A stretch of DNA of 64,000 nt from PVC group bacterium (lineage in GTDB: Bacteria > Omnitrophota > Gorgyraeia > B26-G9): positions 12,668-76,667 of the forward strand of contig JAAEQR010000034.1 in the NCBI GenBank assembly GCA_024231215.1, in the 5' to 3' direction. The position numbers and the translations under genes are program-made. Shown here piece after piece: positions 2,936-32,186 of this stretch. A model generated the notes under the pieces. It made no database searches. It was not told where the DNA came from and was given only the letters and a program-made list of their open reading frames with translations. Every line of letters starts with the position of its first letter. The first letter of the stretch is position 1.

Positions 2936-5900
2936 ACCTCTTTATGAAGTCACAGAAGTTCTTGATACCATCCCGAAACATTTCCTTGTTCTCAGGATTG
3001 TATATTGTTGAAGCAGGATGAATAACCCAACTGATAAAGCAACCATACTTTTCATTCCATTCCAACTCACCGCTCTTATTCATTATACCGCTTTCTTCAT
3101 CTGTAAAAAACTTAATTGAAGTGTTCCCACAAGCCAGAGCAACAAACGGTTCAATTCTTTCAAACTCATCGTCCAGCCACATAGAACATTTTTCTATATG
3201 CTTTTTTGTCGGGGTCTTTATTGTCCTTCCGGGATAGCATTTACAGACATTTGTTACATGGAAATCTCTTCGGGTAAAAGAATTATCTTCTACCTGTTCC
3301 CATAATTTCTTACCGGAATCTCCCACAAAACCTACGCCTGTACGGTCTTCATCCGCTCCAGGTGCTTCACCTATAATCATAATGTTCCGGGTAGAACGGC
3401 TCGGGAGGACAGGGAGAGTACATTCTCCTTCCAGTTGACACTCTTTGCATTCCAGTAATTCCGTGTTTTTGTACCTTGCCCTTTTTACAGGTTTCAACTT
3501 TAATCCTTCAAGTCTGCCCCTCAGTAAATCTTCTGCGAACCACATCCGGTGGCAGACAATGTTACCGCTTTTCTGAGGCATGTTTATTTTAATAAGAACA
3601 TATGAATCTTCTGAATGTTCTATCTCTTCTATATTCTCATTGTAATACGTTTTATCAAAAGAAAACTGGAGATCCCCTGTTTCATCTCTGAATAATACGC
3701 TTACACTGGCTTTTTTCCCGCTACTCCCTTTAAATGTACTAAGCTTTAATTCTTCTATTTTTCCGAAATAATACCTCATATTAGAGTCAATGTCGTATAC
3801 TTTTATGTCTTTTGCTTTTTCTATCTTTATTCCGGAACCATTTAAAAAATTGATAAATTTCTTATACTGATACAAACTATCCCGTACAAAAGAGAGTCCT
3901 GTGTACTCAGATAATCTATCGGCTTCTTCGTCGGTAATAGCCACATTATCATACGCATTTATAATGTCAAGTATATTAAGGAACCTTTTTGTCACTGGTT
4001 CTTTCTCTTCTGAACCCTCATAAAACCCCTTGGCTTCAAGCTTTTTAAAGCTTTTTGCGGTCTTTTCGCCAACACCTTTGATCTCTATAAACGGGGCATA
4101 AAGGATGTTATCTTTTATACTCCACAAGAACGGATCGCTTATCCCGACCTTCGGAAACCGCACATCTATCCCTAAACGGAAAGCTTCCTGAACGAATTCT
4201 GTCTTCTTCGCGTCTTTCTCTGTCCCGGACGCGCCGTATGTGAGAAGGGCGCATATAAACTCCGTGGGATAATTTTGTTTCAGATATTGATCCCAATACG
4301 TCAGCATTGTGTAAACAACTGAATGACTTTTATTAAACGAATACTTTCCATATTCTACAATATTATTCCAGAGGCCATAAGCCTGTTCGTCTGTCAAAGT
4401 TTTCTTCTCTACACACCCTTCCACGAATTGTTCCTCATATTTCCTGAGAGCATCTTTGCCTTTGCTCTTGGCAATATCTTTTCTTATCTTGTCACAAACA
4501 CCCCACTTTAATCCCGCGAGAAGGTTCGCAACCATCATAATCTGTTCTTGGTAAATAAGGAGACCGTAAGTGTCTTTCGTTATCTCGTCGTAAATATGGT
4601 GGAGCCCCGGAGTCTCTTCTAACCCTTTTTTTCTTTTTATATATAAATCGCTGATGCCACTGTTAAGCGGCCCTGGCCTGTAAAGAGCGGTGATGTCAAC
4701 TAAAGTGTTAAAGTTATCGACGCCAACCTGTTTACAATATTTTCGTAACCCCCGAGACCCCACTTGAAAACAGCCTACATTGTTCCCTTTACTGAACTCA
4801 CTGAAACACTTCTCATCATCCAAAGGGATTTCCTTAAAGTTTAAATCTACTCCACGGTTTTCTTTTATGAGCCTCTTAGTTTCCTCTAACACCGATAGCA
4901 TTGACAACCCGAGTACATCCAGCTTAATCAACCCAACATGTTCGATGTCGTCTTTGTCCCAATTTATTACCGGGTTCTTATCTTTATCAACAGTGAAAGC
5001 ACACCTCGTCCCTCCACGAAGGTCTTCATCTGAAATAACCAGGGCTGCTGCATGCACCCCTTTATTCCGGATAGTGCTTTCCATTTCAGCAGATATTTTT
5101 GCCACTTTAGGATATTTCCTGGCGAACCACTTTCCATCTTCAAACATTTCAAATGCTTCTTTGATTGTCTCTCCATAACCTTCATCGCCTTTCAGCCTTG
5201 ATATTATAGCTGAACACCCTCTATCCACATCAACGTAAGGCACATCAAACACTCTGGAGACATCTCTTAAAGCCTGTTTGCCTCCCATAACAGAAGTAGT
5301 GCTTACACTGTTTACATTCCACTCCCCATACAACTCTCCCAGATGATCTCGTATAAGGTGCCGTTTAACATCCGGAAAATCAATATCTATGTCAGGCAGA
5401 GAAATTCTGTCTGGATTTATAAATCTGGAAAACAACAGGTTATACTTTATAGGATCTACACCAGTAATGCCTATCAGATAACAAACAAGAGAGCCAGCAC
5501 TGGAACCCCTTCCCGGGGAAATAAATATATCATTCTTCTTACACCATTCTATAAGTTCCCATACAATCAAAAAATAACGGACAAAATCCTGTCTCACTAT
5601 TAGATTGATTTCCTCTTCAAGCCTTTCCTGATATGCGTCTTCTCCTTTCTTCCCTATCCTGTGCATTCCGCTTTCGCATAAATTTTTTAAGAAAAAGATT
5701 TCGTCTTCCCACGCTAAACTCTCAGGCAAAGGAAGATGAATCTTTTTCTCAGGTATTTTTGTGAACCCACTACACTTCTCCGCCACTTCCATCGTGTTTA
5801 TCAAAGCCCTTCGGCATTCTCTTGAAGAGAGAGCGCCCTGAGCCTCAAAACTTTCAATCATTTCTTCTCTGGTTTTCAAAAAATAACTTCCAGAATCTTT

Positions 5901-6602
5901 AAACTTCCACCTTTTCGGGTCTTTCCATTTCTTCTTAATCTGTACCGCGAGTAAAACTTCATGGTTCAGCACATCTTCACTATTAACAAAATGAGAATCG
6001 TTTGTCGCTATTAACGGCAAACTATACTTTTCTGAATACATTTGACATAATACATTAACATCTTTCTGCTCCTGAAAATTATGAGGCATGATTTCCAGGT
6101 AGAGATCTTCCGTGCTTTGGTCTATTAACCTTTTCAAAAAGTTTTCTCCCCATGGGAAAGAAAGGAAAGACGCGGAACAGGCAGTAGATATGATCAACCC
6201 TTCCCGGTTCTCCGCGAGAAGTTCTGGAGATATTCTCGGTCGGTAATAGAACCCTTCTATGTTTGACAGGGTAATAAGCTTAAGGAGATTGTTCCAGCCG
6301 ACCTCGTTCTTGGCAAACAAGGAAACATGAGCCCGTTTCTCTCCTTTTTCATGGAGAATAATATCTGGAACTATATATAACTCCGCACCGAAGATCGGTA
6401 TAATATTATTCTTTTCACATTCTTTTTGGAACTTAATCGCTCCATCCACGTTGCCATGGTCTGTCATTGCAAGATGGGTAAACCTCGCCCTCCTTGCCAC
6501 TGAAGCATATTTTTTATGAGAGCCAAACCCGTCTAAATACGAGTATTGTGAATGGCAATGTAGGTGACAAAAGTTTTGATCCATTTTAATATCCCAAAGC
6601 AC
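2928..6602 (-). CDS. dnaE: DNA polymerase III alpha subunit (DnaE-type, PHP domain) with C-terminal family-4 uracil-DNA glycosylase domain
   Basis: N-terminal PHP motif HLHCHSQYSYLDGFG...MTDHGNVDG; long polymerase core; C-terminal ~200 aa carry UDG family-4 motifs GEAPGADEDRTGVGFVGDSGKKL and HPAS plus four Cys. Likely true start is the second Met (MDQNF, ~6584). Confidence 0.85.
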   Translation of the reverse strand: MLWDIKMDQNFCHLHCHSQYSYLDGFGSHKKYASVARRARFTHLAMTDHGNVDGAIKFQKECEKNNIIPIFGAELYIVPDIILHEKGEKRAHVSLFAKNEVGWNNLLKLITLSNIEGFYYRPRISPELLAENREGLIISTACSASFLSFPWGENFLKRLIDQSTEDLYLEIMPHNFQEQKDVNVLCQMYSEKYSLPLIATNDSHFVNSEDVLNHEVLLAVQIKKKWKDPKRWKFKDSGSYFLKTREEMIESFEAQGALSSRECRRALINTMEVAEKCSGFTKIPEKKIHLPLPESLAWEDEIFFLKNLCESGMHRIGKKGEDAYQERLEEEINLIVRQDFVRYFLIVWELIEWCKKNDIFISPGRGSSAGSLVCYLIGITGVDPIKYNLLFSRFINPDRISLPDIDIDFPDVKRHLIRDHLGELYGEWNVNSVSTTSVMGGKQALRDVSRVFDVPYVDVDRGCSAIISRLKGDEGYGETIKEAFEMFEDGKWFARKYPKVAKISAEMESTIRNKGVHAAALVISDEDLRGGTRCAFTVDKDKNPVINWDKDDIEHVGLIKLDVLGLSMLSVLEETKRLIKENRGVDLNFKEIPLDDEKCFSEFSKGNNVGCFQVGSRGLRKYCKQVGVDNFNTLVDITALYRPGPLNSGISDLYIKRKKGLEETPGLHHIYDEITKDTYGLLIYQEQIMMVANLLAGLKWGVCDKIRKDIAKSKGKDALRKYEEQFVEGCVEKKTLTDEQAYGLWNNIVEYGKYSFNKSHSVVYTMLTYWDQYLKQNYPTEFICALLTYGASGTEKDAKKTEFVQEAFRLGIDVRFPKVGISDPFLWSIKDNILYAPFIEIKGVGEKTAKSFKKLEAKGFYEGSEEKEPVTKRFLNILDIINAYDNVAITDEEADRLSEYTGLSFVRDSLYQYKKFINFLNGSGIKIEKAKDIKVYDIDSNMRYYFGKIEELKLSTFKGSSGKKASVSVLFRDETGDLQFSFDKTYYNENIEEIEHSEDSYVLIKINMPQKSGNIVCHRMWFAEDLLRGRLEGLKLKPVKRARYKNTELLECKECQLEGECTLPVLPSRSTRNIMIIGEAPGADEDRTGVGFVGDSGKKLWEQVEDNSFTRRDFHVTNVCKCYPGRTIKTPTKKHIEKCSMWLDDEFERIEPFVALACGNTSIKFFTDEESGIMNKSGELEWNEKYGCFISWVIHPASTIYNPENKEMFRDGIKNFCDFIKRFE

Positions 6603-7696: not shown

Positions 7697-7726
7697 ATAT
7701 ATATCACGGAATTAATTTTGCTGTAC
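7697..7726 (-). promoter_or_regulatory. promoter of the cgTGaTATATA family (minus strand)
   Basis: Minus-strand reads AAAAAACGTACAGCaaaattaattccgTGaTATATATAAAGAG, ~20 nt before the start of 7270..7680; same element as at 20194, 29194, 29708 and 32178. Confidence 0.4.
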
Positions 7727-18284: not shown

Positions 18285-20177
18285 TTAACCTCCTTGGTAT
18301 TTTTTAAATAATTCGAATAACAGGCTACTATCTTTTACATCTTTACCGTCAATAATAGCCGTTATTACCTTATTTTTTTCATCTATTATTTTTAACATAT
18401 CCTCTTCGATAGTGTTCTCGGAAACCAGATAATAAATATTAACATGATCTGCTGTTTGCCCTATCCTCTGGCACCTGTCCTCAGCTTGAATATGTAAAGC
18501 TGGCACCCAGTCTACTTCTAAGAATGCCACTGTGCTTGCAGCCGTTAATGTGATTCCTACTCCCGCAGCCTTTATGTTTCCAACAAAGATTTTTATTTCC
18601 GGATTTTCCTGGAATGAGTCAACCGCTTTCTGTTTCCTTTTTGGTGTATCTCTTCCATCAAGTTTAACAGCAATGTCCCCATATTTTTCCATTATAAAAT
18701 CAATAGTCTTATGATGAACCGCGAACAAAACTATTTTCTGATCAGTCTCCAGAAAATTATCTATCCATTCAGAAATATAATTCATCTTACCCGTAACCGC
18801 TAACTGGCGAAGCTTATTGAATTCTGCTAACACTCTTGCCATCTGAGCCCGTCTTGCAGCATCATCCCCTTCCAGACTTCTTATAAAGCTGACTATATCT
18901 GCTTTAGCCCTTTTGTATTCACTTCTATTGTTGATCTCCAAAGGAATAACAGTTTTAGTTTTTGGAGGCAACTCTTTCAATACATCTTCCTTTATTCTAC
19001 GGATCATAAAAGATTTTATAATGGAGTTTAATTTCTCAACATTGCTCGCTCCATTATACGTCCAGCCAAAGCCATTGTGTACAGGATTACAAAATTCCTG
19101 AGTATACCTAAACCAGTTTGGAAATAACTCAGGCTTAAGCATATTCAACCCTGTAAAAAATTCCGATGGTCTGTTCGTTATCGGTGTTCCGGAAACGCAT
19201 AGGATATGATCTATTCCATGAGCGAGAGAACATCCGGCTTTTGTCCTGTTTGCTTTTGGATTCTTAAGATAATGATGTTCGTCAAAAATTACTAATTGAG
19301 TGTTTATGTCCATTAAAAACTCTAAATAATCTTTTAATATATCGTAGTTGATTATTATTATGTTCTCGTCTCTTCCCCTTATCACTTCATGTCTGCCTTG
19401 AAAAATTCTATAATTTTCTTCCGGAACCCAGTCGTCCAGTTCTCTACTCCAATTTATTTTTAATGTTGCCGGACAAACAATTATAGCTGGTCTTAACTCT
19501 GGATTCATTTTCATATACAGGATAGCTTGCAGTGTCTTGCCTAGTCCCATATCATCAGATAGCAAAACTCGTCCATCTAATTCGTTCAAGCGCTTTATCC
19601 CTTCCACTTGAAAAGGGAAAGGGCTTTTACCGGAGAGACTAACCATTTTGCTAATATCATCTGTCATTAAGACAGTCGGCTTTTTCTCCTTTATTTCTCC
19701 TGTAATTGTAAAACCTAAATTCTTAACTTCTTTGACTGTGTACTCAGACACAGGAACACTCCACAACTTTTCTCTGGAGTGGTACTCCCGACCAGGCAAA
19801 TTTTTTACTTCTTGTAAAACTTTTACCCACTCTTCTTTTTTCGGTAGTTTAAATTCTAAATATATCCTGTTGTCTTTTATTTCAGCCTTCTTAATTTTTT
19901 CCGCTTTTGAATTCGTCGATCTCTTTTTTTTCTTCGGGTCTGGGATATTGTTGTATTCTATCCCCAGACTGGATAATTGTTTTCTGTACTTTCCCATCAT
20001 ACTGTAAGCTGCGATTGCCGTAAGCACTGTCCAATTATTCTCTCCATGGAGTTGTCTGGCGAATATAGTATCGTATTTGTTAAAACCTATCCCGTCAACT
20101 GTTCTCGCTCCATCACAATTAAATAAAATTGCACTTAAAGCTTCCCTCAATTCGATGTAATTTTCTTTTTCCTTCAT
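18285..20177 (-). CDS. SNF2/Rad54-family helicase/ATPase
   Basis: Motif I LSDDMGLGKT, motif II IFDEHHYLKN, motif III CVSGTPITN, C-terminal motifs IV-VI (FLEVDWVPALHIQAEDRCQRIGQ). Confidence 0.85.
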   Translation of the reverse strand: MKEKENYIELREALSAILFNCDGARTVDGIGFNKYDTIFARQLHGENNWTVLTAIAAYSMMGKYRKQLSSLGIEYNNIPDPKKKKRSTNSKAEKIKKAEIKDNRIYLEFKLPKKEEWVKVLQEVKNLPGREYHSREKLWSVPVSEYTVKEVKNLGFTITGEIKEKKPTVLMTDDISKMVSLSGKSPFPFQVEGIKRLNELDGRVLLSDDMGLGKTLQAILYMKMNPELRPAIIVCPATLKINWSRELDDWVPEENYRIFQGRHEVIRGRDENIIIINYDILKDYLEFLMDINTQLVIFDEHHYLKNPKANRTKAGCSLAHGIDHILCVSGTPITNRPSEFFTGLNMLKPELFPNWFRYTQEFCNPVHNGFGWTYNGASNVEKLNSIIKSFMIRRIKEDVLKELPPKTKTVIPLEINNRSEYKRAKADIVSFIRSLEGDDAARRAQMARVLAEFNKLRQLAVTGKMNYISEWIDNFLETDQKIVLFAVHHKTIDFIMEKYGDIAVKLDGRDTPKRKQKAVDSFQENPEIKIFVGNIKAAGVGITLTAASTVAFLEVDWVPALHIQAEDRCQRIGQTADHVNIYYLVSENTIEEDMLKIIDEKNKVITAIIDGKDVKDSSLLFELFKKYQGG

Positions 20178-20193
20178 AATTTATCCTACACCT

Positions 20194-20223
20194 TATATAT
20201 ATCACGCTTTTAATTTTGTCACA
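20194..20223 (-). promoter_or_regulatory. promoter for the SNF2 operon (gTGACA-15-TGaTATATA)
   Basis: Minus-strand reads gtgTGACAaaattaaaagcgTGaTATATATAAGG, ~20 nt before the SNF2 start. Confidence 0.4.
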
Positions 20224-20259
20224 CAAAAAAAGCCCCTATTAAGCATTTTAATAGAGGCT
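20224..20259 (-). terminator. rho-independent terminator (minus strand)
   Basis: AGCCCCTATTAA-gcatt-TTAATAGAGGCT hairpin, 12-bp stem with one mismatch, followed on the minus strand by TTTTTTTGTGTG. Confidence 0.5.
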
Positions 20260-20270
20260 TTTAATTAGGT

Positions 20271-20438: not shown

Positions 20439-20509
20439 AATACTTTCTCCTTTTTAATAATTTTAAAACTTATGCCAGCCTGTTGAACAAGCTAGCATAA
20501 AGTCTAAAA

Positions 20510-20848
20510 CTACGATCCAATCTTTGTTTCGATTGTTGTCGGAGTCAGATAAACTTTTAAAAGTTTACCTGTAGTAAAGCCAGTCATACAGGCTAATTCC
20601 CTAACGGTCGCTATTGTATCACCACCGTCGTCGCCACCGTAGACCGCCCTCTTCTCTTCCCACCAATCGTCGTCTTTAGCGGGATTGATTCCTTTAGCAT
20701 AAACAATTTTTCTCTTTTCGGCTGGTTGATCAAAACACATTAAATATACTCCTTGATCGCCAACCAGAAAGATTTCTGCATCAATGCTTAAACCTGTAAC
20801 GAGATTTTTCACTTCATCCAGATTAAAATTTAAAATTGTTTTTGACAT
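20510..20848 (-). CDS. hypothetical protein
   Basis: 112 aa; N-terminus MSKTI and the upstream RBS region duplicated from 20271..20438. Confidence 0.5.
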   Translation of the reverse strand: MSKTILNFNLDEVKNLVTGLSIDAEIFLVGDQGVYLMCFDQPAEKRKIVYAKGINPAKDDDWWEEKRAVYGGDDGGDTIATVRELACMTGFTTGKLLKVYLTPTTIETKIGS

Positions 20849-20881
20849 AATACTTTCTCCTTTTTAATAATTTTATAAAGC

Positions 20882-20911
20882 TTACTCCTGTACTGATTAG
20901 TACAAGAGTAA
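20882..20911 (-). repeat. hairpin TTACTCCTGTACT-gatt-AGTACAAGAGTAA (copy 1 of a 58-nt intergenic repeat)
   Basis: 13-bp stem immediately 3' of the stop of 20915..21076; second copy at 21299..21328 differs only in the loop. Confidence 0.5.
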
Positions 20912-20914
20912 AAC

Positions 20915-21076
20915 TTATAAATCTCTTTTACGCCGTTCTAATATATCAATTGCTATTTGTTCAATTGTTGAACCACCAACAGACAACTCATTTTTCAATT
21001 CCTCAATGGTAATTTTATTATCGGTGTCATTATATTGATTAACCGATTTTAATAAATCATTTAGTGTATCTTCCAT
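20915..21076 (-). CDS. small protein (53 aa)
   Basis: Manually translated MEDTLNDLLKSVNQYNDTDNKITIEELKNELSVGGSTIEQIAIDILERRKRDL; conserved AAAAAGGAGAAAG SD. Confidence 0.4.
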   Translation of the reverse strand: MEDTLNDLLKSVNQYNDTDNKITIEELKNELSVGGSTIEQIAIDILERRKRDL

Positions 21077-21117
21077 AATCTTTCTCCTTTTTAATAATTT
21101 TATAACGGCACATGATA

Positions 21118-21270
21118 GATTATCTCTGGAAAAGATTCTTCCATTTCTTCAATAGATAAACGATGTGCCTCCCAATCATGGATTGAATAATCTTGTTGTT
21201 GCATAGATTGATATGCTCCAATTAGATCGGCATAGGCACATTTGATTACTTCTTTTTGTTTGTCTGTCAT
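21118..21270 (-). CDS. small protein (50 aa)
   Basis: Manually translated MTDKQKEVIKCAYADLIGAYQSMQQQDYSIHDWEAHRLSIEEMEESFPEIIYHVPL; GGAGG SD. Confidence 0.4.
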
Positions 21271-21298
21271 AATTAAGACCTCCTTAATTTTATAAAGC

Positions 21299-21328
21299 TT
21301 ACTCCTGTACTGGAAAGTACAAGAGTAA
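21299..21328 (-). repeat. hairpin TTACTCCTGTACT-ggaa-AGTACAAGAGTAA (copy 2)
   Basis: Identical stem to 20882..20911, directly 3' of the stop of 21332..21835. Confidence 0.5.
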
Positions 21329-21331
21329 AAC

Positions 21332-21835
21332 TTATAAATTATCGTTAATCTCTTCTTGTGTCCACTCTTGCCAACATAAGCCTAGAGACACGTCCCAGAC
21401 TTTGATTGGTTTAGTATCACAGATCAATATCCTTTTCTCGATCCGGTATTCCTCCTCACCATCATGATGGATCAATACATCCCCTTCCATTCTAAAAGAC
21501 ATGGGAGAATTATTGTTGCCGGTAAAATCTGTTGTATTTTCTATAAACTTTAAAATTTGATCTTTTTCCATCCACGGACATTCCCAGCCATTCCATTTGC
21601 AATTTGTATCTACATAAGCATCATAAATTCCGCCTTCTATGTAGTCGAAACCAACCTTGATTTTTTTGATGTCTGTTGGTAAAATTACATCCATCTCTAC
21701 AATATCACTTTTAGGAATAGAATAAGAAAACCCACCACCGAGAGGAAAACAGGAGATACAATCTTCCTTGACATCCTCATCCCTGTAATTGAAATAATAA
21801 GGCTTGCCGTTTTGTTCTACTTTGAGTATTTTCAT
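21332..21835 (-). CDS. hypothetical protein
   Basis: 167-aa ORF. Confidence 0.5.
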   Translation of the reverse strand: MKILKVEQNGKPYYFNYRDEDVKEDCISCFPLGGGFSYSIPKSDIVEMDVILPTDIKKIKVGFDYIEGGIYDAYVDTNCKWNGWECPWMEKDQILKFIENTTDFTGNNNSPMSFRMEGDVLIHHDGEEEYRIEKRILICDTKPIKVWDVSLGLCWQEWTQEEINDNL

Positions 21836-21844
21836 AACCGCCTC

Positions 21845-22393
21845 CTATACCCAGACTTCATTGAGACCTTTTTTAATCTCAGTAAAGCCTAGTAAAATTC
21901 TTTTTCTTTCCCAGCCGATACTTCGAAGATATTTATATAAATCTTCTTTCTTTAATCTTTTACAAAAATTCTCTTTTTCCTTTTTCTTGATTTCTGTTGG
22001 CGGGTTAAAGAAAATGTCAACGATGTCCTGAGAATCTTGGGACATATTCAGAATCGTCGCATCAATAATGCTATTGACGTTTTCCTGTCTTTTATCTTCA
22101 ACTTGAAAATCATCAATGTCAACAATAATTCTCCTTTCCCAAAAATGGTTTTTTCCTTCTCTTCTTCTCTGTTCCCCAGACAATTCACGACATTTTGTAT
22201 AGAGTCCAAAGTATAAAGAGTTTGATAAAAAATTCTCAAACTTTCCAATTTTGGGATCAAAATTCTCAGCACACTGACAAAAAATTAAATTCGCCTCAGA
22301 CAAAATCTCTTCTCTTTCCAAGCGATTTTTTCTCATCACTGAAGATACTGCACGATCAATAATAGGCTTTGAATCTAGATAAAGTTTTTCCAT
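21845..22393 (-). CDS. sigma-70-family-like protein (region 2 and HTH-like C-terminus), putative phage sigma factor
   Basis: EANLIFCQCAENFDPKIGKFENFLSNSLYFGL aligns with sigma region 2.2-2.3 (LiQeGniGLmkAvekFDPerGfkFsTYAtwwI). Confidence 0.4.
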   Translation of the reverse strand: MEKLYLDSKPIIDRAVSSVMRKNRLEREEILSEANLIFCQCAENFDPKIGKFENFLSNSLYFGLYTKCRELSGEQRRREGKNHFWERRIIVDIDDFQVEDKRQENVNSIIDATILNMSQDSQDIVDIFFNPPTEIKKKEKENFCKRLKKEDLYKYLRSIGWERKRILLGFTEIKKGLNEVWV

Positions 22394-22419
22394 AATGTTA
22401 CCCTCTTATAATAGTTTTT

Positions 22420-22466
22420 AAGATTTATAAAAATCTTATGTAAGGCTATTAAAAATTAATAGCCTT
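22420..22466 (-). promoter_or_regulatory. early-gene promoter/hairpin cassette (TTAATA-17-TATAAA; hairpins A 22420-22437, B 22442-22466)
   Basis: Hairpin A AAGATTTataaAAATCTT; hairpin B AAGGCTATTAA-aaa-TTAATAGCCTT; on the minus strand the -35 lies in an arm of B and the -10 in the loop of A. Confidence 0.45.
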
Positions 22467-22479
22467 ACCATAATGACTT

Positions 22480-22698
22480 TTAGTGATTTTTTTCGATCCC
22501 ATCAATTTCGATGATCTGAGAATTGGTTATTTTAACCAAACTGTCTATAATTCTATCTGCCTCCACTTCCGATGCACAATCATATTGACCGATGTATTCA
22601 CAGTGGTAATCTAAAAAATATACATCATAAGCATATGATCCGTCGGTCAACTTTAATTTTACCTTTTGGATTTTTTCTACTCGTTGTGTATCTCCCAT
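22480..22698 (-). CDS. hypothetical protein
   Basis: 72-aa ORF following a cassette. Confidence 0.45.
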   Translation of the reverse strand: MGDTQRVEKIQKVKLKLTDGSYAYDVYFLDYHCEYIGQYDCASEVEADRIIDSLVKITNSQIIEIDGIEKNH

Positions 22699-22741
22699 AA
22701 TGTTGCCCTCTTATAATAATAGTTTTTAAAGTTTTAATTGA

Positions 22742-23050
22742 TTAAATATTAAATCCAAGTGCTTTCCTAACTTTTTTCGTCAAACTACCTTTATAATCTT
22801 TATTATGGGTAGTACAAATTTTTCCTTGGATTCTGTCATATAGCCACGCACCGGATAAAATTAAACTATCGGTCAATTCTTCAATTTCTTTGACTTGATA
22901 TTGAATATCTGAATTATCTAAAGAATCGTTATTCTGTAAATATTCGCTAACTGCCTCAACCATTTTATAATGTACTTCTTTTTGAAAATGGTTGTGTAAT
23001 TGCTTAAGCCTTTTTTTTAGTTGCTTTTGTGTTTTAATCATAATAATCAC
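22742..23050 (-). CDS. hypothetical protein
   Basis: 102-aa ORF. Confidence 0.45.
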   Translation of the reverse strand: MIIMIKTQKQLKKRLKQLHNHFQKEVHYKMVEAVSEYLQNNDSLDNSDIQYQVKEIEELTDSLILSGAWLYDRIQGKICTTHNKDYKGSLTKKVRKALGFNI

Positions 23051-23081
23051 CTTTTTAATAATAATAGTTTTTAAAGTTTAA

Positions 23082-23573
23082 TTAATGTAAATCACCATTT
23101 TCAAGATATTCATAATTATTCATTATTGAATGTTCATTAAATTCATCAATTGACATTCTATAATCGAGTGTTGAATATCCGTCCTTTTCAATTTTGTAAC
23201 AAATATCATCGAAAATAGACTTGAATTCAATTTCTGTGTCCTCATCTGTACCCTCATCAAAAAAAATATTAACGCTATTCCGATGAGAATAACGTCCTAT
23301 ATGTTTTATTGTAATATCGTTTTTTTTCCATTGAAATTGACCAATAAAACAAGCTCCATCTCCTTGACGATAGGATAGAGAATAATATACTTTTAAATCG
23401 TCAAAAGTTATATTATTCTCATCTAACAAATATTTACAATATTCTGTCAGGTCTTCTGGTAAAAAAGGATAATCTTCTAGTTCATACCATTTTTCAATAG
23501 CTTTTTCTTGACTTTCTCTAGACAGTTCGCTGAATTCATAAATAATAATTTCTTCTTTTCTCATAATAATCAC
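23082..23573 (-). CDS. hypothetical protein
   Basis: 163-aa ORF. Confidence 0.5.
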   Translation of the reverse strand: MIIMRKEEIIIYEFSELSRESQEKAIEKWYELEDYPFLPEDLTEYCKYLLDENNITFDDLKVYYSLSYRQGDGACFIGQFQWKKNDITIKHIGRYSHRNSVNIFFDEGTDEDTEIEFKSIFDDICYKIEKDGYSTLDYRMSIDEFNEHSIMNNYEYLENGDLH

Positions 23574-23595
23574 CTTTTTAATAATAATAGTTTTT

Positions 23596-23641
23596 AAGAT
23601 TATAAAAATCTTATGTAAGACTATTAAAAATTAATAGCCTT
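23596..23641 (-). promoter_or_regulatory. early-gene promoter/hairpin cassette (hairpins A 23596-23612, B 23617-23641)
   Basis: Near-identical copy of the 22420..22466 cassette (A shortened by one T; B with one A/G change). Confidence 0.45.
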
Positions 23642-23654
23642 ACCATAATGACTT

Positions 23655-23975
23655 TTAAAGGTTAGGATCAAAACCGTTTTCGAGGCAATCTCTTTTTAAT
23701 CCGTCCTTAACATTCCAGAGAATCGGGTAATTGTTGTTCATTTCATATTGTCTATAATCTTTCTCTGGAATCCAACCACTCTTCACCATTGCCAGCAATG
23801 CCGTTTCTTTGTATTGTTCTCCGTAACCATATTCAAAAGGGCAATACAAAACCTTGCTATCGCTAGCCCTTACAATTCTCGCTGAATGGTAAGTGTTGCC
23901 GTTAATCTTGTCAAACCATCGGCAACCAGTGACAAAAAACTTGAGTTCTCTTTTTGTTGTCTTTTCGTTGTACAT
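23655..23975 (-). CDS. hypothetical protein
   Basis: 106-aa ORF; AAAGGAGAAAG SD; the iteron array lies directly upstream. Confidence 0.5.
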   Translation of the reverse strand: MYNEKTTKRELKFFVTGCRWFDKINGNTYHSARIVRASDSKVLYCPFEYGYGEQYKETALLAMVKSGWIPEKDYRQYEMNNNYPILWNVKDGLKRDCLENGFDPNL

Positions 23976-23998
23976 AATTCTTTCTCCTTTTTAATAAA

Positions 23999-24054
23999 GT
24001 TCTCGCCTTCCGAGTTCTCGCCTTCCGAGTTCTCGCCTTCCGAGTTCTCGCCGA
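23999..24054. repeat. iteron-like direct repeats, 3.7 x 15 bp (GTTCTCGCCTTCCGA)
   Basis: Units at 23999-24013, 24014-24028, 24029-24043, and a partial unit 24044-24054; GC-rich island in AT-rich DNA. Confidence 0.8.
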
Positions 24055-24067
24055 GTGTAACGAAAAT

Positions 24068-24226
24068 TCTCAAAACCAAAAATCCTGGATTTTCGAAATT
24101 TTTTCCAGCACCGAAAAGAAACATTTTTTGATGTTTCTGCAGCACCGAAAAGAAACATTTTTTTGATGTTCCTAGACTATCCCGAAAATTTTCAGAATCG
24201 AAAAAACCAGGTTTTTCGAAATTTGA
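24068..24226. repeat. cluster of inverted repeats plus a 33-bp direct repeat (x2) in a non-coding leader
   Basis: AAAATCC-t-GGATTTT (24079-24093); two copies of CAGCACCGAAAAGAAACATTTTTTGATGTTTCT (24106-24138, 24139-24172), each holding palindrome AGAAACAT-n6-ATGTTTCT; CGAAAAAACC-a-GGTTTTTCG (24199-24218). Confidence 0.7.
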
Positions 24227-24257
24227 AATTTTTTAAAAAACCCTTAATAATAAATTT

Positions 24258-24310
24258 AAGATTTATAAAAATCTTATACCTAGCTATCAATAATAAAAAT
24301 TGATAGCTAG
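24258..24310 (-). promoter_or_regulatory. early-gene promoter/hairpin cassette (TTGATA-17-TATAAA; hairpins A 24258-24275, B 24280-24310)
   Basis: Hairpin A AAGATTTataaAAATCTT; hairpin B CTAGCTATCAAT-aataaaa-ATTGATAGCTAG (12-bp perfect stem). Confidence 0.5.
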
Positions 24311-24320
24311 TTACAAAATT

Positions 24321-25220
24321 TTAATCATTTTCTTTATAATCTACATTGTTATTATAATGTAGATTATTAGAATATTCATTTTCACAAAATTCAATGCAAG
24401 TTTCACAAAGTAATAATCCCTCATACGCCTCTAAATCATCAACTTGATGATCAGTGTCGCAAAATTCGCATTTTGTGACAACATTTTTATCAGCGTATTT
24501 TGATTTATTACTTTTTTTACCGTAAACTTGACCAGTATATTTATTATAATCATAACCACTTCCATAAACACTCCCGCAAAATCGATCATAATAATCGTTT
24601 GACATATACTTATTTTTATAAGTATATTTCTCTTGTTTATAAGTAGTGTTGGAATAATAAATATTTTTGTCTTTTTCAAAATCACCAAAAGAAAATAAAT
24701 ATCCTTTTTCGTCAAGTGCTATAACTCTAGATCCTTTTAAAGATATTTTCAACAATTTTTTAATATGATCTTTTTCAAAATCACAATTAGAAAAATTTGC
24801 TAAAATGTCTTTCACGAAAATTTGAGAATCTGACAAATTTTCATTTTTTTTGTCAGTAATGGAGATAACTCCATTGTGTGCAAAACCTTTTTCGCTGATA
24901 ATTTCAGTACTTTGTAATAATGAAATATTGTCAGTGATAGGAAAAGGATGACAATTTTCCGCCTTTACTTTTCCCGCGGTTGCTATCCTAGCGTGAATAA
25001 CTATACTGACATCCTGTTCATGTAATCCAAAATCAAAAAGTTTTGCATTCAAACTTTTCCTTAATGCTTTCGCACTTGAAAAACCTTTTTTAATAAATAC
25101 TCCTTTACTGGGAATATTAAACATATAACCAGCGCCATCGGGATTATTTATCAAACAATTTTTAACAATACTGTTATCCGGTAAAAATTGCTTTTTCGGT
25201 TTGTAAATAATAATACACAT
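24321..25220 (-). CDS. class-II glutamine amidotransferase-like (Ntn hydrolase, YafJ-type) protein with C-terminal zinc ribbon
   Basis: N-terminal Met-Cys (MCIIIYKP; Cys2 nucleophile after Met removal); HARIATAG fits the H-x-R-x-A-T-x-G motif of GATase-II; C-terminal CEFCDTDH...CETCIEFC. Confidence 0.5.
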   Translation of the reverse strand: MCIIIYKPKKQFLPDNSIVKNCLINNPDGAGYMFNIPSKGVFIKKGFSSAKALRKSLNAKLFDFGLHEQDVSIVIHARIATAGKVKAENCHPFPITDNISLLQSTEIISEKGFAHNGVISITDKKNENLSDSQIFVKDILANFSNCDFEKDHIKKLLKISLKGSRVIALDEKGYLFSFGDFEKDKNIYYSNTTYKQEKYTYKNKYMSNDYYDRFCGSVYGSGYDYNKYTGQVYGKKSNKSKYADKNVVTKCEFCDTDHQVDDLEAYEGLLLCETCIEFCENEYSNNLHYNNNVDYKEND

Positions 25221-25249
25221 AATAGTTAACCCTTTTTAATAATAAATTT

Positions 25250-25302
25250 AAGATTTATAAAAATCTTATACCTAGCTATCAATAATAAAAATTGACAGCT
25301 AG
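25250..25302 (-). promoter_or_regulatory. early-gene promoter/hairpin cassette (hairpins A 25250-25267, B 25272-25302)
   Basis: Same A/B hairpins as 24258..24310, one mismatch in B's right arm. Confidence 0.5.
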
Positions 25303-25316
25303 CTACAAAATTTCAA

Positions 25317-26615
25317 TTAAATTCCCTTTTCAATACAAGCTTGCAAAAATTGCTTGTATTTTAATTTTCTAGCCATTTCAAGAACATTTTGCCAGTTCAT
25401 TTTTTGAATTGACATTATACTATCATTTTCGGCGATAATAGCAATCAAATTAGTTAATTGCATAAATCCAATTAAAGAATTTATTTTTAATGTTCCGCGC
25501 CATAATCTAAACTCAATTGTTGAAATGGGTATTAAATTAACACTTTGATAGCGTCCTTGCTTGACATTTTTTTCTTTAATGCCAGTGACAAGCTTTTTAT
25601 TTAATTTTCCTAGATCTTCATTTTTATGACAATAATTCAGATTATTTCTTTTTGAGAAAAGAAATAAATGTTGCCACAATTTCTCGAAAATTAAACAAAT
25701 TTTAGTTGCTGACAATTCATAATTTGAAAAATATTGACGATTTACATGGATATGAAATCCACAATTTCCCGAATTATGAGAAACGGCATTATAATCACGA
25801 CATATTTCAACTAATTTTTGTAAAGGGAATTTATTGACAAAAAAATCTAGAGTGCAAGGTTGTGAACAAATTTCAATTCCTAGATCTGACAATGAACCGT
25901 CTGTTTTTAAATAAAAATATTTTTCATTTTCACTTAAATTATATAATTCATAAACTAAATCGGGTACATTATCAATTTTTTCAATCTCTAGCTCCCAACC
26001 TAAAAACAAGTCAGTTGCTTTTTTTTGTGAAATGGAATGAAAAGTCATTCTATTCGGTGTATAATCATAATTATGTAAGTGTTCAATGCACCCATGATCA
26101 TTATAGCAATCTTCACAATAAGATCGGTGACATGATTCACAATAATAAGATTGATCATCGTGATATAAATCACCACAACGTGAACACGTAAAGTATTCTT
26201 CTAGACAATTTTCGCATAAACAATGATCATTATTATAATGATAATGATCATTGTCCCGATGTATATCACATTCACAACTATCACAAACTAGGTAATCATT
26301 TTCATAACAAGTTTGACAAACTATTCTATTTCCATCATTTATAGAAATAGAATCATCATTAAGATGAACATTTCCGCAATCGTCACACTCAAAAAATAAT
26401 TCCTCAAAACATTCTTCACAATAATTTTTTCTGTTAATTCGCTGTAGATTTTCCCTATCTCTTTCAAAATGTTCCTTACAATGACTACACTTAAAAACAT
26501 TGTTTTTAAAACATTCTGAACAATAAGAAAAATCCTCATTGTGATATTCAGTTACAACTTGTCCACAACTAGAACAAACTTTTTCCGCTTGTACTTCTTT
26601 TTCCTCTTTTTCCAT
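25317..26615 (-). CDS. Amidoligase_2-family-like protein with N-terminal Cys-rich zinc-ribbon repeats
   Basis: N-terminal ~190 aa hold more than ten C-x2-C pairs; the C-terminal half has GWELEIE, KTDGSL..GIEICSQP and CGFHIHV, resembling amidoligase (GS-like) motifs. Confidence 0.45.
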   Translation of the reverse strand: MEKEEKEVQAEKVCSSCGQVVTEYHNEDFSYCSECFKNNVFKCSHCKEHFERDRENLQRINRKNYCEECFEELFFECDDCGNVHLNDDSISINDGNRIVCQTCYENDYLVCDSCECDIHRDNDHYHYNNDHCLCENCLEEYFTCSRCGDLYHDDQSYYCESCHRSYCEDCYNDHGCIEHLHNYDYTPNRMTFHSISQKKATDLFLGWELEIEKIDNVPDLVYELYNLSENEKYFYLKTDGSLSDLGIEICSQPCTLDFFVNKFPLQKLVEICRDYNAVSHNSGNCGFHIHVNRQYFSNYELSATKICLIFEKLWQHLFLFSKRNNLNYCHKNEDLGKLNKKLVTGIKEKNVKQGRYQSVNLIPISTIEFRLWRGTLKINSLIGFMQLTNLIAIIAENDSIMSIQKMNWQNVLEMARKLKYKQFLQACIEKGI

Positions 26616-26646
26616 AATATTTAACCCTTTAAATAATTATAAATTT

Positions 26647-26697
26647 AAGGTTATAAAAACCTTATAACTAACTATCAAAAATTATTTGATAGTTAGA
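26647..26697 (-). promoter_or_regulatory. early-gene promoter/hairpin cassette (TTGATA-17-TATAAC; hairpins A 26647-26663, B 26668-26697)
   Basis: A AAGGTTataaaaAACCTT (compensated variant of AAGATTT/AAATCTT); B CTAACTATCAAA-aattat-TTTGATAGTTAG. Confidence 0.5.
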
Positions 26698-26712
26698 TAC
26701 AAAATTTTAAAA

Positions 26713-26988
26713 TTAAACAGACTCGGATAATATGCAATCTAGACAATAATTTTTCCCATTTATTTTATTTGTCTTTTCTTTATATCTTTCAAAATATCCA
26801 TTGCAATGGCTACACTTAAAAATATTTTTTAGATACGTTTTTTCTTTTCGGTCAAATAATGTAATCTCTTTCCAAATTTTGTTATTTGACTTAACATTAA
26901 AACGATCAATCGCCTGTTTTTTATAACAGTATGTCCACTCATAAACCGTTCCGCCATTTCGTACCATTGTTATTAAAAATCTTTTCAT
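26713..26988 (-). CDS. small zinc-ribbon protein
   Basis: CSHCNGYFERYKEKTNKINGKNYCLDC. Confidence 0.45.
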   Translation of the reverse strand: MKRFLITMVRNGGTVYEWTYCYKKQAIDRFNVKSNNKIWKEITLFDRKEKTYLKNIFKCSHCNGYFERYKEKTNKINGKNYCLDCILSESV

Positions 26989-27018
26989 AATATTTAACCC
27001 TTTAAATAATTATAAATT

Positions 27019-27069
27019 TAAAGTTTATAAAAAACTTTATAACTAACTATCAAATAATATTGATAGTTA
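27019..27069 (-). promoter_or_regulatory. early-gene promoter/hairpin cassette (hairpins A 27019-27037, B 27042-27069)
   Basis: A AAAGTTTataaaaAACTTT; B CTAACTATCAA-ataat-ATTGATAGTTAG; TTGATA-18-TATAAA on the minus strand. Confidence 0.45.
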
Positions 27070-27082
27070 GATACAAAATTTT

Positions 27083-27226
27083 ATTAAGCTATTTTTTGCC
27101 TGATTGCATTACGTCTAGAAAAAACTTTACCATTTTTATCAACTTCAAAAATGGTTTGAACATAAATAATTTTATTTCTTAAGTCTACAGCTTTTATCCA
27201 TTTTGTTTTTTTGATAATTTTCATTT
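27083..27226 (-). CDS. small basic protein (47 aa)
   Basis: Manually translated MKIIKKTKWIKAVDLRNKIIYVQTIFEVDKNGKVFSRRNAIRQKIA; AGGAAT SD; not in track. Confidence 0.3.
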
Positions 27227-27235
27227 TTTTTATTC

Positions 27236-27652
27236 CTAGATTATATCATATTTACGGAAAAGAGAAAAAACTTTACTTGTAATAAAATTAAAATAATTAA
27301 AAATTATTTTATCTTTATCATCATTACAAAGTTTGATATTTTCCCAATTTTCAAAAAGTGAAACAATATCTTTTTCAGATTTAGCAATTTTAAAACAGGA
27401 ACTTTTATTGGAAAGCCACTCTTTAAAGGCTAATTGTTTAGTTAGCCCTTTATATGGTTTTATTCGATAATAACCATACTGTTCCATAAAAATATCATGT
27501 AGAAATTCAAGCTTTGAAGCATTGGTCAAATTGCCGTAAAAATAATTGCTATGATCAATACTATCTAAAATATACTTACTACTTTTTTGATATAACTTTT
27601 CATTAGACATAATAAGCCCCTTTTTTAATTTAATATTTAAACATAAAATCAT
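27236..27652 (-). CDS. hypothetical protein
   Basis: 138 aa; first gene of the leftward arm next to the control region. Confidence 0.45.
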   Translation of the reverse strand: MILCLNIKLKKGLIMSNEKLYQKSSKYILDSIDHSNYFYGNLTNASKLEFLHDIFMEQYGYYRIKPYKGLTKQLAFKEWLSNKSSCFKIAKSEKDIVSLFENWENIKLCNDDKDKIIFNYFNFITSKVFSLFRKYDII

Positions 27653-28139
27653 TTTAATAATTATAAAATGACTTTATGTAAAAACATTATAAATAATGTT
27701 TTTACAACTAATTACATTGAAATCTGAAATATACAATTAAAAAATGCATATCGCTTGTAATTAGATTTTAGGGTTTTTATTATGTTAAAGGGTTTTGATT
27801 GGGATTACTTTATTTGATTTACTTGCTTTTTGCAAATTTCCGGTTTGCCCGTTTTCAATCAATCAAGATGTTTAAAACATCTTTTTTTTCATCCGTATAT
27901 TTTCAAAGATCAATAGTTAAAAACAACTATTTTGAAATAAACATTTAACATATAAAATCATTAAATATTTATTTACTAACTGTATATAGTATCGCTATAT
28001 ATAGTCAATTTGTCAATAGCTATTTTAAAAAAATTGCCTTTTTTTAGAAAAAAATTCAATAAGTTAGTCTAGCCTAATTTAGCTAATTATAACACTAATT
28101 AGAAAGTAGTAACACGATTTATCCTACACAATTTAAGAA

Positions 28140-28610
28140 ATTACAATAATTACATAATCCAGGATAATTGAATCATTTTAAATAATTACTAAAAATGAAT
28201 AAAATGGCTATAATCGGGATAACAAGCATTTTAAATAATTGATCTATTTTAAGTAATTACAATAAATGAAGTAAGTACAGAAAATGATTATAATAAACAA
28301 TTACTAAAATTAAACTAATTACAGAAAATGAATAAAATACCAGTATCATAATAAACAATTACAATAATTTAAGTAATTACAAAAAATGAACAGAACAACC
28401 ATTTTCCATAATTACAAAAAATGAAATAAATAACCTGGTTTTAATAAATTGAATCATTTTAAATAATTACTAAAAATAGACAAAATAAGCCAATACCATT
28501 TTAAACAATTACTTAAAATGAATAAATGAAAAAACTTACAAAATACTACAAACAATTACAATAAGTACTTAAAATGAATAAAATGAAGTAATTATTAAAA
28601 ATGTTAAAAA
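28140..28610. repeat. array of about 12 degenerate direct repeats, core AATTAC(T/A)AAAAATGAATAAA
   Basis: Copies near 28186, 28255, 28300, 28314, 28358, 28375, 28410, 28465, 28507, 28554, 28573, 28593; a longer ~30-bp unit TTGAATCATTTTAAATAATTACTAAAAAT occurs at 28168 and 28449; ORF-free. Confidence 0.75.
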
Positions 28611-28870
28611 AAGCTATAGAGTAGATATAAACAATCATATAGACCTTGCTATAATATACCCTCATACTGTATATAAGACACGCCATAAGCATATAGAATA
28701 CTCTATACCCATATACTATAGAGTGCTTAATATAATGGCTATAGAAGGGTATATATTAAGCCATATAGAGTGTCATATATAATAATGGCTTAAGAAGGGG
28801 ATATATTAAGGATGTAAGCTGATTGACGGCTTAAGAGTGGTATATAAAGACATATAGCGATATTATAACC
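28610..28870. repeat. cluster of (C/T)ATATAGAG-type short motifs and three ~29-bp direct repeats
   Basis: AATGGCTATAGAAGGGTATATATTAAGCC (28734-28762), AATGGCTTAAGAAGGGGATATATTAAGGA (28783-28811), CGGCTTAAGAGTGGTATATAAAGAC (28826-28850); at least 6 copies of nTATAGnG. Confidence 0.6.
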
Positions 28871-29082: not shown

Positions 29083-29160
29083 GGGGATCCCCCGCTTAAG
29101 CCATCCGAACATAACCATCCGCTTAAGCCATCCGAACATAGCCATCGCTTAAGCCATAAA
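29083..29160. repeat. GC-rich palindrome GGGGGATCCCCC followed by 2.6 x 27-bp direct repeats (CGCTTAAGCCATCCGAACATAACCATC)
   Basis: Repeats at 29093-29119, 29120-29145 and a partial copy at 29146-29160, immediately upstream of the first rightward promoter. Confidence 0.7.
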
Positions 29161-29174
29161 AACAGAAAAAAGTG

Positions 29175-29202
29175 TTAGTCATCTACCTATACGTGATATA
29201 TA
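29175..29202 (+). promoter_or_regulatory. promoter AAAAAAGTG-TTAGTC-16-TGaTATATA
   Basis: -35-like TTAGTC 29175-29180, extended -10 TGaTATATA 29194-29202, ~18 nt before the ATG at 29221. Confidence 0.5.
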
Positions 29203-29692: not shown

Positions 29693-29716
29693 TCATTCCC
29701 GTTATAGTGATATATA
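29689..29716 (+). promoter_or_regulatory. promoter AAAAAGTG-TTAGTC-16-TGaTATATA (second copy)
   Basis: TTAGTC 29689-29694; TGaTATATA 29708-29716; precedes the ATG at 29736. Confidence 0.5.
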
Positions 29717-32158: not shown

Positions 32159-32186
32159 TTCCTCAAAACTATATCCGTGATATATA
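32159..32186 (+). promoter_or_regulatory. promoter AAAAAAGC-TTCCTC-16-TGaTATATA
   Basis: cgTGaTATATATAAAGAG, 18 nt before the ATG at 32205; weak -35. Confidence 0.4.

Follow-up and report, generated by a model that had tools for sequence, protein, structure and literature searches.

A 64,000-nucleotide (nt) stretch of contig JAAEQR010000034.1 (the window), which is a portion of a tailed-phage genome, carries between its leftward-transcribed early genes a reiterated intergenic cassette whose mRNA-sense strand can pair in two mutually exclusive ways: as a long hairpin made up of an inner stem (hairpin B) and a lower helix that begins at the upstream stop codon (the clamp), or as a downstream hairpin (hairpin A) that uses one strand of the clamp. 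The helices covary, are specific to the sense strand and are confined to early regions, the long hairpin has a terminator-like geometry, and breakpoints of recombination fall within the cassettes. We tentatively interpret the cassettes as mRNA punctuation modules of one long leftward early transcript, each combining a terminator-like, 3'-end hairpin with an alternative hairpin in the 5' untranslated region of the next gene, and as recombination linkers, rather than as the promoter or operator units of the original prediction made for this DNA.

The six intergenic spacers singled out in that prediction are all present on the minus strand (cassettes c1–c6; Table 1), and the order of elements given for them is borne out, except that the B stem has 11–13 base pairs (bp) rather than 11–12 and the gap between B and A is 1–4 nt rather than a uniform 4. 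On the minus strand, the stop codon is followed by ∼10–14 nt, hairpin B, the short gap, hairpin A (7–8 bp, loop TTAT or TTTAT), AAAT or AAAA, an AT-rich tract, the Shine-Dalgarno sequence (SD) and ATG. Stems of B are of the types CTAAC.../...GTTAG, CTAGC.../...GCTAG and GTAAGGC.../...GCCTTAC, and stems of A of the types AAAGTTT/AAACTTT, AAGGTT/AACCTT and AAGATTT/AAATCTT. Pairing is kept throughout, as the claim of compensatory variation required, and the folding z-scores of the sense strands of c1–c6 range from −6.2 to −8.6. Because the six copies amount to three near-identical pairs (c1/c2, c3/c4 and c5/c6), however, the window alone provides few independent compensatory events, and the relatives described below support the claim far more strongly. 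The initiation motif, said to recur ten or more times, is less frequent than that: TTATTAAAAAGGnGAAAG is found four times exactly and seven times at up to three mismatches on this strand. Cassette c4 has a degenerate initiation region that reads TAAGGG and lacks an ATG, and ∼260 nt of non-coding DNA rich in repeats come next. This DNA, at 23976–24236 on the 3' side of c4, holds four tandem 15-nt units (GGCGAGAACTCGGAA, 23998–24052), GAAACATCAAAAAATGTTTCTTTTCGGTGCT twice and repeats of the TTTCGAAAA type in inverted orientation; it could represent a small RNA or an array of binding sites. In addition to the six full copies, the block contains a seventh cassette (c0), which has unrelated stems and precedes the first early gene, and two truncated copies (t1 and t2) that begin with the 3' arm of A (Table 1).

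Relatives were reached by two routes, namely, through homologues of the SNF2 helicase (50–55% identity), which led to syntenic contigs, and through a pattern scan, which led to an 81.7-kb IMG/VR contig. The same module is found behind nearly every early gene in five related phage contigs (L002, L003, L007, L009, and IMGVR_UViG_3300037067_026376), with B stems that are unrelated in sequence and with a hairpin A of the consensus TA-AG/A-N3-5, T-rich loop, N3-5-CT-TA, then AAAT, in which the base is conserved and the interior is variable. Of 36 cassettes, 34 have an A at position +1, immediately 3' to the stem, and the next ATG is 25–33 nt away. A covariance model built from 34 copies of hairpin A and run over both strands of 143 kb gave 49 matches (42 distinct), all of them on the sense strand and all in early regions. 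Stem cells are paired in 97.3% of cases (slid controls, 14–58%), two-sided changes are seen in 59 cells compared with 13.3±3.3 after shuffling (0 of 500 shuffles reached the observed value), and the covariation score is 0.555 compared with 0.167; it should be noted in reading these figures that many copies are paralogous and that the alignment was fitted to the model.

The structure is also specific. The three matches that the model gave in 571 kb of unrelated metagenomic DNA all lie in one contig that itself bears the module, and 80 of the 116 stretches matched in a metagenome scan with the initiation-region pattern of L007 and L009 yielded one more module-bearing contig, L050, the other stretches among the 80 being rejected as chance matches. 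At the gathering score, Rfam had no match in the window, L003 or L007; the sub-threshold matches obtained in E-value mode were only the canonical terminator of Table 1 and one chance miRNA. The exact window hairpin-A sequence is absent from IMG/VR, and no hairpin A was found, with the covariance model or otherwise, in L004 and L006, two more distant contigs of higher G+C content that have post-stop hairpins or another layout. All-against-all BLASTP brought out no early protein that co-occurs solely with hairpin A. Hairpin A is a real, specific structure, and the module represents a structured RNA motif with about 50 examples, clear covariation and no counterpart in Rfam. An A-like hairpin not detected by the covariance model (AAGATGTTT t AAACATCTT, 27865–27883) lies in the ∼370-nt leader between the candidate early promoter (Table 1) and the first cassette, c0.

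In all six window copies, the minimum-free-energy fold of the sense strand is not B plus A but a hairpin of 22–25 bp, in which the ∼12 nt from the stop codon to B pair, with the help of G·U, with both the linker and A's 5' arm, leaving a one-nucleotide interruption on each side of B. The 5' sequence of this clamp is AAAATTTTGTA in c1–c4 and TAAAAGTCATTATG in c5–c6. Because hairpin A takes its 5' arm from the 3' strand of the clamp, clamp plus B and hairpin A are mutually exclusive. A↔G differences in the 5' arm of A, neutral in the clamp (U-A to U·G), are matched by compensating T↔C differences in A's 3' arm, which argues that both folds are maintained. When the 3' arm of A is left out, the energy of the clamp extension is −7.7 kcal/mol, and −3.1 kcal/mol once the 5' arm is shuffled; upstream pairing then takes up 79% of the nucleotides in A's 5' arm, and 21 of 35 cassettes are within the 5% tail. 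In c3, the energies are −12.1 and −3.3 kcal/mol, respectively, and in c0 the energy is no better than shuffled. Compensated variants of the clamp are found as well (for example, ATGC/GCAT, ATGT/ACAT, ACGC/GCGT, and TTTTCCC/GGGAAAG). The clamp is a real helix.

Pairing in the cassettes differs between the two strands. The clamp-plus-B folds contain 54 G·U among 651 pairs in the sense RNA and 11 among 558 in the antisense RNA, and the non-Watson-Crick pairs of hairpin A, read on the mRNA-sense strand, are six G·U and one C·A. Sense RNA is more stable than antisense RNA in 27 of 36 cassettes (−21.9 vs −18.7 kcal/mol, p = 1.6e-4), with folding z-scores over the 36 of −5.7 and −4.8, respectively. 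This strand-specific pairing and stability argues for a function in mRNA rather than in a duplex DNA operator. In 24 of 35 cassettes, c1–c6 included, a hairpin of −8 kcal/mol or better (−8 to −24 kcal/mol) ends at most 2 nt from a run of 4–6 T, and a complementary A tract (TAAAA) is present at the stop codon of these terminator-like cassettes. We read the long hairpins as leaky attenuators and 3'-end hairpins.

The cassettes are also where early regions have been rearranged. L007 and the IMG/VR phage are 97% identical over their replication genes; their early regions are mosaic, with gene-sized insertions, deletions and replacements, and a comparison of block and spacer coordinates places the boundaries of collinear blocks in spacers or a few nt from them. 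One hairpin A is a hybrid when the IMG/VR phage is compared with L007: the junction is in the loop, with a 3' arm and initiation region shared identically with an L007 cassette and a 5' arm, B and clamp from another cassette, and two stem mismatches have been left behind. An orthologous B hairpin shows a compensated C-G to T-A change. In the window, pairs of direct repeats flank single genes, and the truncated cassettes t1 and t2 both break at the A loop. The 91-amino-acid (aa) gene at 26713–26988 partially duplicates, at 75% identity, the N-terminal, Cys-rich portion of the amidoligase-like gene at 25317–26615 (duplicated segments 26410–26505 and 26735–26830), and its position between the near-identical c1 and c2 suggests a cassette-mediated tandem duplication. 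As we interpret these comparisons, cassette-mediated shuffling matches the picture drawn for the promoter-early stem-loops (PeSLs) of T4-type phages (Arbiol et al., 2010, PMC2839356; Comeau et al., 2014, PMC4122927) and would extend this style of gene shuffling to an unrelated phage group.

Under the interpretation that we tentatively favor, each early cistron would end in a long, sequence-variable hairpin of ∼20 bp composed of B and the clamp, with a small internal loop at their junction. The 5' strand of the clamp would start at the stop codon, and the 4–6 U directly 3' of the hairpin in most copies would make it a weak intrinsic terminator or attenuator as well as a hairpin that protects the 3' end. 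Its 3' strand would double as the 5' arm of hairpin A (TAAG-N3-5/T-rich loop/N3-5-CTTA, then AAAT), and in read-through RNA, once the clamp had been opened by a terminating ribosome (the clamp being inside its footprint) or by cleavage of the long helix, the shared strand would refold with the downstream arm into hairpin A. Hairpin A would then provide a folded 5' boundary for the next cistron and keep the pyrimidine-rich arms off the SD, and the ∼90-nt cassette at every junction would serve as a linker for homologous recombination through which early genes are inserted, deleted and swapped. We consider it unlikely that the cassettes go further and form, at every early-gene junction, a bistable phage RNA element of a new class, in which a ribosome on the stop codon (or a cut in the helix) flips the shared strand and so gates both terminator read-through and initiation of the next cistron; were this the case, the cassette would be a portable, self-contained coupling device that travels with the shuffled genes.

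A number of points weigh against the punctuation reading. Termination, read-through, refolding in vivo, and effects on stability and translation are steps that we infer. Eleven of the 35 cassettes do not have the terminator-like geometry; where it is present, the stem is rich in A-U or G·U at its base beside the U run, so that weak termination is predicted, and leakiness is indeed required because 6 serial hairpins in the window, and at least 15 in L007, would, if efficient, silence distal genes in the absence of promoters or antitermination. The alternative folds are predicted to change SD accessibility only slightly: the cost of opening the SD is 2.2 kcal/mol, compared with 1.1 kcal/mol when the clamp arm is blocked and 1.7 kcal/mol when it is shuffled. 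The conserved base of hairpin A (TA-AG...CT-TA, with A at +1) exceeds what a purely structural role asks for and could be a recognition site for a protein or polymerase, and c0 has B and A yet neither an upstream gene nor a clamp. Finally, quasi-palindrome correction by template switching could create some of the seemingly compensatory changes without selection.

The alternative that survives best, possible although on balance improbable, is essentially the model of the original prediction, in which the cassettes are terminator-plus-promoter units of the PeSL type: B (together with the clamp) would stop or attenuate transcription, and an interleaved sigma70-type promoter, with its −35 element in the 3' arm of B and its −10 element in the loop and 3' arm of A, would restart it at each gene. 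The PeSLs of phages phi1 and RB49 provide a precedent, their stem-loop being located between −35 and −10 or over −10 and both promoter and terminator activity having been demonstrated with lacZ fusions (PMC2839356), and serial terminator-like hairpins would require re-initiation. The window has −35 hexamers (TTGATA four times and TTAATA twice) at 17–18 nt from −10 hexamers (TATAAA four times, TATAAC once, and TATAAT in c5 alone), in accordance with the 17-nt spacer proposed except in c1, where it is 18 nt. If the −7 position is relaxed, c1–c5 reach 10 of 12 consensus matches at a fixed position, each near the 5% tail of its own shuffles. However, five of the six copies lack the −7 T, a standard sigma70 scan passes c5 only (TTAATA-17-TATAAT), c0 has no −35 hexamer, and the six copies, being three recent duplicate pairs, count as three independent observations at most.

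The relatives speak against the same model. It is only the paralogous copies of the window that reach 10 of 12, whereas the 28 cassettes of the relatives score 6–9 of 12, at chance level and at other positions, and the strict best match over 35 cassettes averages 7.7 of 12 compared with 7.3 of 12 in dinucleotide shuffles. Because the relatives have A loops of ttt, tta or atta and B stems of unrelated sequence, the module conserves neither of the two hexamers. Hexamer pairs resembling promoters abound in this AT-rich DNA (91 in 12 kb, 65±9 expected), and annotators should be aware that hairpin loops and arms in AT-rich phage DNA readily mimic −35 and −10 hexamers. In the spacers d1, d3 and d4, there is no space for a promoter because the initiation region directly follows the hairpin. 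A promoter would, moreover, leave the covariation of hairpin A and the sense-specific G·U pairs unexplained. A sigma70 promoter as the conserved function of the cassettes is not supported; a weak promoter specific to the window is possible.

A recognizable, conserved promoter-like motif, GTGATATATA, does exist elsewhere in this DNA and is absent from the cassettes. It occurs five times exactly, at 7698–7707 and 20196–20205 on the minus strand and at 29193–29202, 29707–29716 and 32177–32186 on the plus strand, and 13 times at up to one mismatch (5.6±2.3 expected); each exact copy is oriented with its gene and lies 17–19 nt from the ATG, with an A-run and an element resembling GTGTTAGTCA in front of it, and similar GATATA-type sequences lie upstream of SNF2 in L002, L003 and L009. 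GTGATATATA is probably a middle-gene promoter class, which the phage sigma-like protein may read. Three tandem 27-nt repeats (CCGCTTAAGCCATCCGAACATAACCAT, 29092–29171) are found immediately upstream of one of the GTGATATATA motifs. As for the early block, the best sigma70-type match upstream of it is the candidate early promoter listed in Table 1. Three other promoter readings of the cassettes were rejected: reading the recurrent TTGCAT as sigma54-type, or AAATTTTGTA as holding a −7 motif of the Bacteroidota type, does not satisfy the spacing and base requirements, and a −10-like TAWAAT just 5' of the SD in relatives leaves no −35 and occurs in window spacers too short for a promoter (t1, t2, and d2).

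Hairpins processed by RNase III are found between the early genes of T7/T3 and of SP82/SPO1. If the cassettes were sites for the host enzyme, the clamp-plus-B helix of ∼20 bp would be cut, the upstream mRNA would keep a 3' hairpin, and the freed arm would form hairpin A as a protective 5' stem-loop. The total helix is typically 19–25 bp with a conserved interruption between clamp and B (1x1 in the window, and often UU/UU in L003, L007 and L009), it stands between cistrons of an early operon, it is specific to the sense strand, and cleavage would account for the retention of both alternative pairings. Several cassettes, however, total only 11–16 bp (in L009, L002 and L003_2920), and neither the U run nor the start of the clamp at the stop codon is explained. 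We consider this an unlikely account of the module.

Somewhat further down the scale, and in our view decidedly unlikely, is a four-segment switch like that of ermC, gated by termination of upstream translation, with the clamp arm as segment 1, the 5' and 3' arms of A as segments 2 and 3 and the SD region as segment 4. In this model, 1:2 would form when the upstream gene is not translated, with segment 3 (or 1) occluding the SD, and a ribosome on the stop codon would mask segment 1 and allow 2:3 (hairpin A) to form, freeing the SD and disabling the terminator-like hairpin. It fits that the clamp arm begins at the stop codon and that B starts 13–17 nt later in most cassettes, within the ribosome footprint, that 1:2 and 2:3 are mutually exclusive and both supported, that blocking segment 1 lifts the predicted probability of an unpaired SD from 0.45 to 0.74 (p = 1e-7), and that the SD is predicted to pair with segment 3 in the closed-clamp state and with segment 1 once A has formed. 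The effect is small (∼1 kcal/mol), however, and only 0.4 kcal/mol when the comparison is with a shuffled arm of matched composition (p = 0.011), segments 3 and 4 pair weakly and not consistently, the stop codon and the clamp arm are 30 to more than 100 nt apart in four cassettes, hairpin B has no role, and a 90-nt device would be a costly way to couple genes. A strong SD-occlusion switch was rejected, the predicted effect being too small to carry the explanation, and given this small energy we treat ribosome-gated coupling as a possibility rather than a finding.

A further reading, which we hold to be very unlikely, makes hairpin A the kind of promoter that N4 has, recognized through its structure by an RNA polymerase that the phage encodes or carries in the virion, with transcription starting at the conserved A 3' of the stem. 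Such a promoter would suit the 6–9-bp stem and short loop, the conserved closing TA...TA with A at +1 in 34 of 36 cassettes, the constant distance of 25–33 nt to the ATG and the occurrence of hairpin A in c0, where there is no upstream gene to terminate. But no RNA polymerase gene was found in the 64-kb window of the 89,976-bp contig, where the largest open reading frame (ORF) encodes DNA polymerase III alpha and unannotated ORFs do not exceed 600 aa, and the phage encodes a sigma-like factor, which implies use of the host polymerase. The promoter hairpin of N4 forms on the template strand, and the G·U bias seen here favors the non-template, mRNA-sense strand. Least credible is the operator for a dimeric regulator (or a cruciform) of the original prediction: the dyad symmetry and the conserved outer TAAG...CTTA are there, but the inner stem positions change freely and always in pairs, so that pairing is conserved and no half-site sequence is, G·U use and folding stability are asymmetric between the strands, the loops are T-rich on one strand only, and the clamp pairing spans B and takes in coding-adjacent sequence.

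Table 1. Positions of cassettes, hairpins and neighboring features, counted along the window.
Feature	Position	Strand	Parts	A 3'-arm start to B 5'-arm end	Covariance-model match	Remarks
Candidate early promoter, TTGACA-17-GATACT	27988–28016	−				∼300 nt upstream of c0; A/T-rich upstream tract; consensus match only
Cassette c0	27643–27705	−				Upstream of first early gene; stems unrelated to c1–c6; no clamp and no −35-like hexamer
Hairpin B0 of c0	27678–27705	−	GTAAAAACATTAT/ATAATGTTTTTAC
Long hairpin A0 of c0	27643–27677	−	ATAAAGTCATTTTA/TAAAATGATTTTAT
Cassette c1 (stop codon to ATG)	26989–27086	−	Clamp 5' arm 27072–27082; B 27043–27070; A 27019–27039	27019–27070	27007–27045	Predicted hexamers: −35 27048–27053, −10 TATAAA 27024–27029 (18-nt spacer)
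Cassette c2	26616–26715	−	Clamp arm 26698–26708; B 26668–26696; A 26646–26664	26646–26696	26634–26670	Predicted hexamers: −35 26673–26678, −10 TATAAC 26650–26655
Cassette c3	25221–25319	−	Clamp arm 25304–25314; B 25272–25302 (one sense-strand G·U); A 25249–25268	25249–25302	25237–25274	Predicted hexamers: −35 25277–25282, −10 TATAAA 25254–25259
Cassette c4	24237–24323	−	Clamp arm 24312–24322; B 24280–24310; A 24257–24276	24257–24310	24245–24282	93% identical to c3
Cassette c5	23565–23657	−	Clamp arm with stop codon 23644–23657; B 23615–23643 (one G·U); A 23595–23613	23595–23643	23583–23619
Truncated cassette t1	23048–23079	−	A 3' arm (AAACTTT), AAAAACTATTATTAT tract and SD			Lacks clamp, B and A 5' arm
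Truncated cassette t2	22706–22734	−				Breakpoint at A 3' arm, as in t1
Cassette c6	22394–22482	−	Clamp arm with stop codon 22469–22482; B 22440–22468; A 22419–22438	22419–22468	22407–22444	5' of the sigma-like gene (21845–22393)
Intercistronic hairpin without A	21299–21328	−				Sense-strand G·U; then (G)CTTTAT or GTTTTA and initiation region
Intercistronic hairpin without A	20882–20911	−				Sense-strand G·U; followed as the preceding one, of which it is a 95% repeat
Intercistronic hairpin without A	20470–20500	−				Sense-strand G·U; followed as the two preceding ones
Canonical intrinsic terminator	20228–20262	−	15-bp stem, G+C-containing base, then T7			End of early block; the sole one of the region in a consensus scan of this strand
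SNF2 helicase gene	18285–20177	leftward

The leftward gene block of the window runs from ∼27.6 kb to 0.4 kb and comprises small ORFan early genes, the sigma-like protein (a weak match to Sigma70_r2), the SNF2 helicase, a replication initiator, DnaB and a fusion of DNA polymerase III alpha with uracil-DNA glycosylase; from 29.7 kb on, rightward genes encode sugar-modification enzymes, terminase and portal. In the polymerase fusion (2928–6602), the glycosylase domain is C-terminal, and the homologue in L003 also has an intein. The Amidoligase_2-like gene adjoins a gene resembling class-II glutamine amidotransferases (a weak match), both within the early block (24321–26615). Between the divergent gene blocks, the non-coding DNA at 28166–28611 holds nine imperfect direct repeats of ∼40 nt (AATTAC...AAAAATGAATAAAAT) at a spacing of 27–71 nt, which look iteron-like and may mark a replication origin. 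The contig is filed in a "PVC group bacterium" metagenome-assembled genome, and the SNF2 protein is identical to one encoded on an 89,976-bp contig of an assembly with that label, although terminase, portal and an entire phage replication module are present; probably, a phage genome has been binned together with that assembly or wrongly assigned to it, and the host assignment is uncertain. No near-identical DNA was found among cultured phages and phage records, the terminase is at most 25% identical to that of any cultured phage, and the polymerase III alpha is likewise distant from cultured-phage versions. Direct relatives in IMG/VR were limited to one weak match for the amidoligase, with none for the sigma-like protein.

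Among known systems, the PeSLs come closest in layout. They, too, are cassettes of ∼100 bp reiterated between small, mostly ORFan early genes, with a stop codon in AT-rich sequence, a stem-loop with G-T pairs that has been interpreted as a terminator or attenuator, an SD and an ATG, and in close relatives they, too, bound gene-sized insertions and deletions, with crossovers inside the stem-loop's looped part. They differ in having near-consensus, experimentally active sigma70 promoters, whereas the hexamers described here are sub-consensus in the window and absent in relatives; in having one stem-loop rather than two hairpins that compete for one strand; and in their carriers, the present phage being no T4-like myovirus but a member of an unrelated lineage, as the terminase identity given above indicates. 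The RNase III hairpins of T7/T3 and SP82/SPO1 are likewise paralogous, intercistronic and part of an early operon transcribed by the host polymerase, with a lower stem, an internal loop and an upper stem totaling ∼20 bp that would leave a 3' hairpin on the upstream mRNA; the present cassettes are unrelated to them in sequence and have an additional, covarying hairpin A, a stop codon in the clamp and a U run. Intrinsic terminators with an upstream A tract share the stable hairpin, the TAAAA tract and the run of 4–6 U of 24 of the 35 cassettes, but here the stem base is A-U/G·U-rich, there is an internal loop, the downstream arm is complementary to the 3' strand of the terminator, and the remaining 11 cassettes are without the geometry. 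What the cassettes share with the ermC attenuators is the choice between 1:2 and 2:3 pairing, a segment 1 that a ribosome covers and an SD downstream; here, however, an entire upstream gene would act as the "leader", segments 3 and 4 pair weakly, and the device is present at every junction. Should the punctuation reading prove correct, every early-gene junction in an uncultivated phage lineage would employ a compact RNA module with two states where T4-type phages have promoter-plus-terminator cassettes, and the module gives testable predictions on the expression and exchange of host-takeover genes. We place the module with the reiterated regulatory cassettes of phage early regions.

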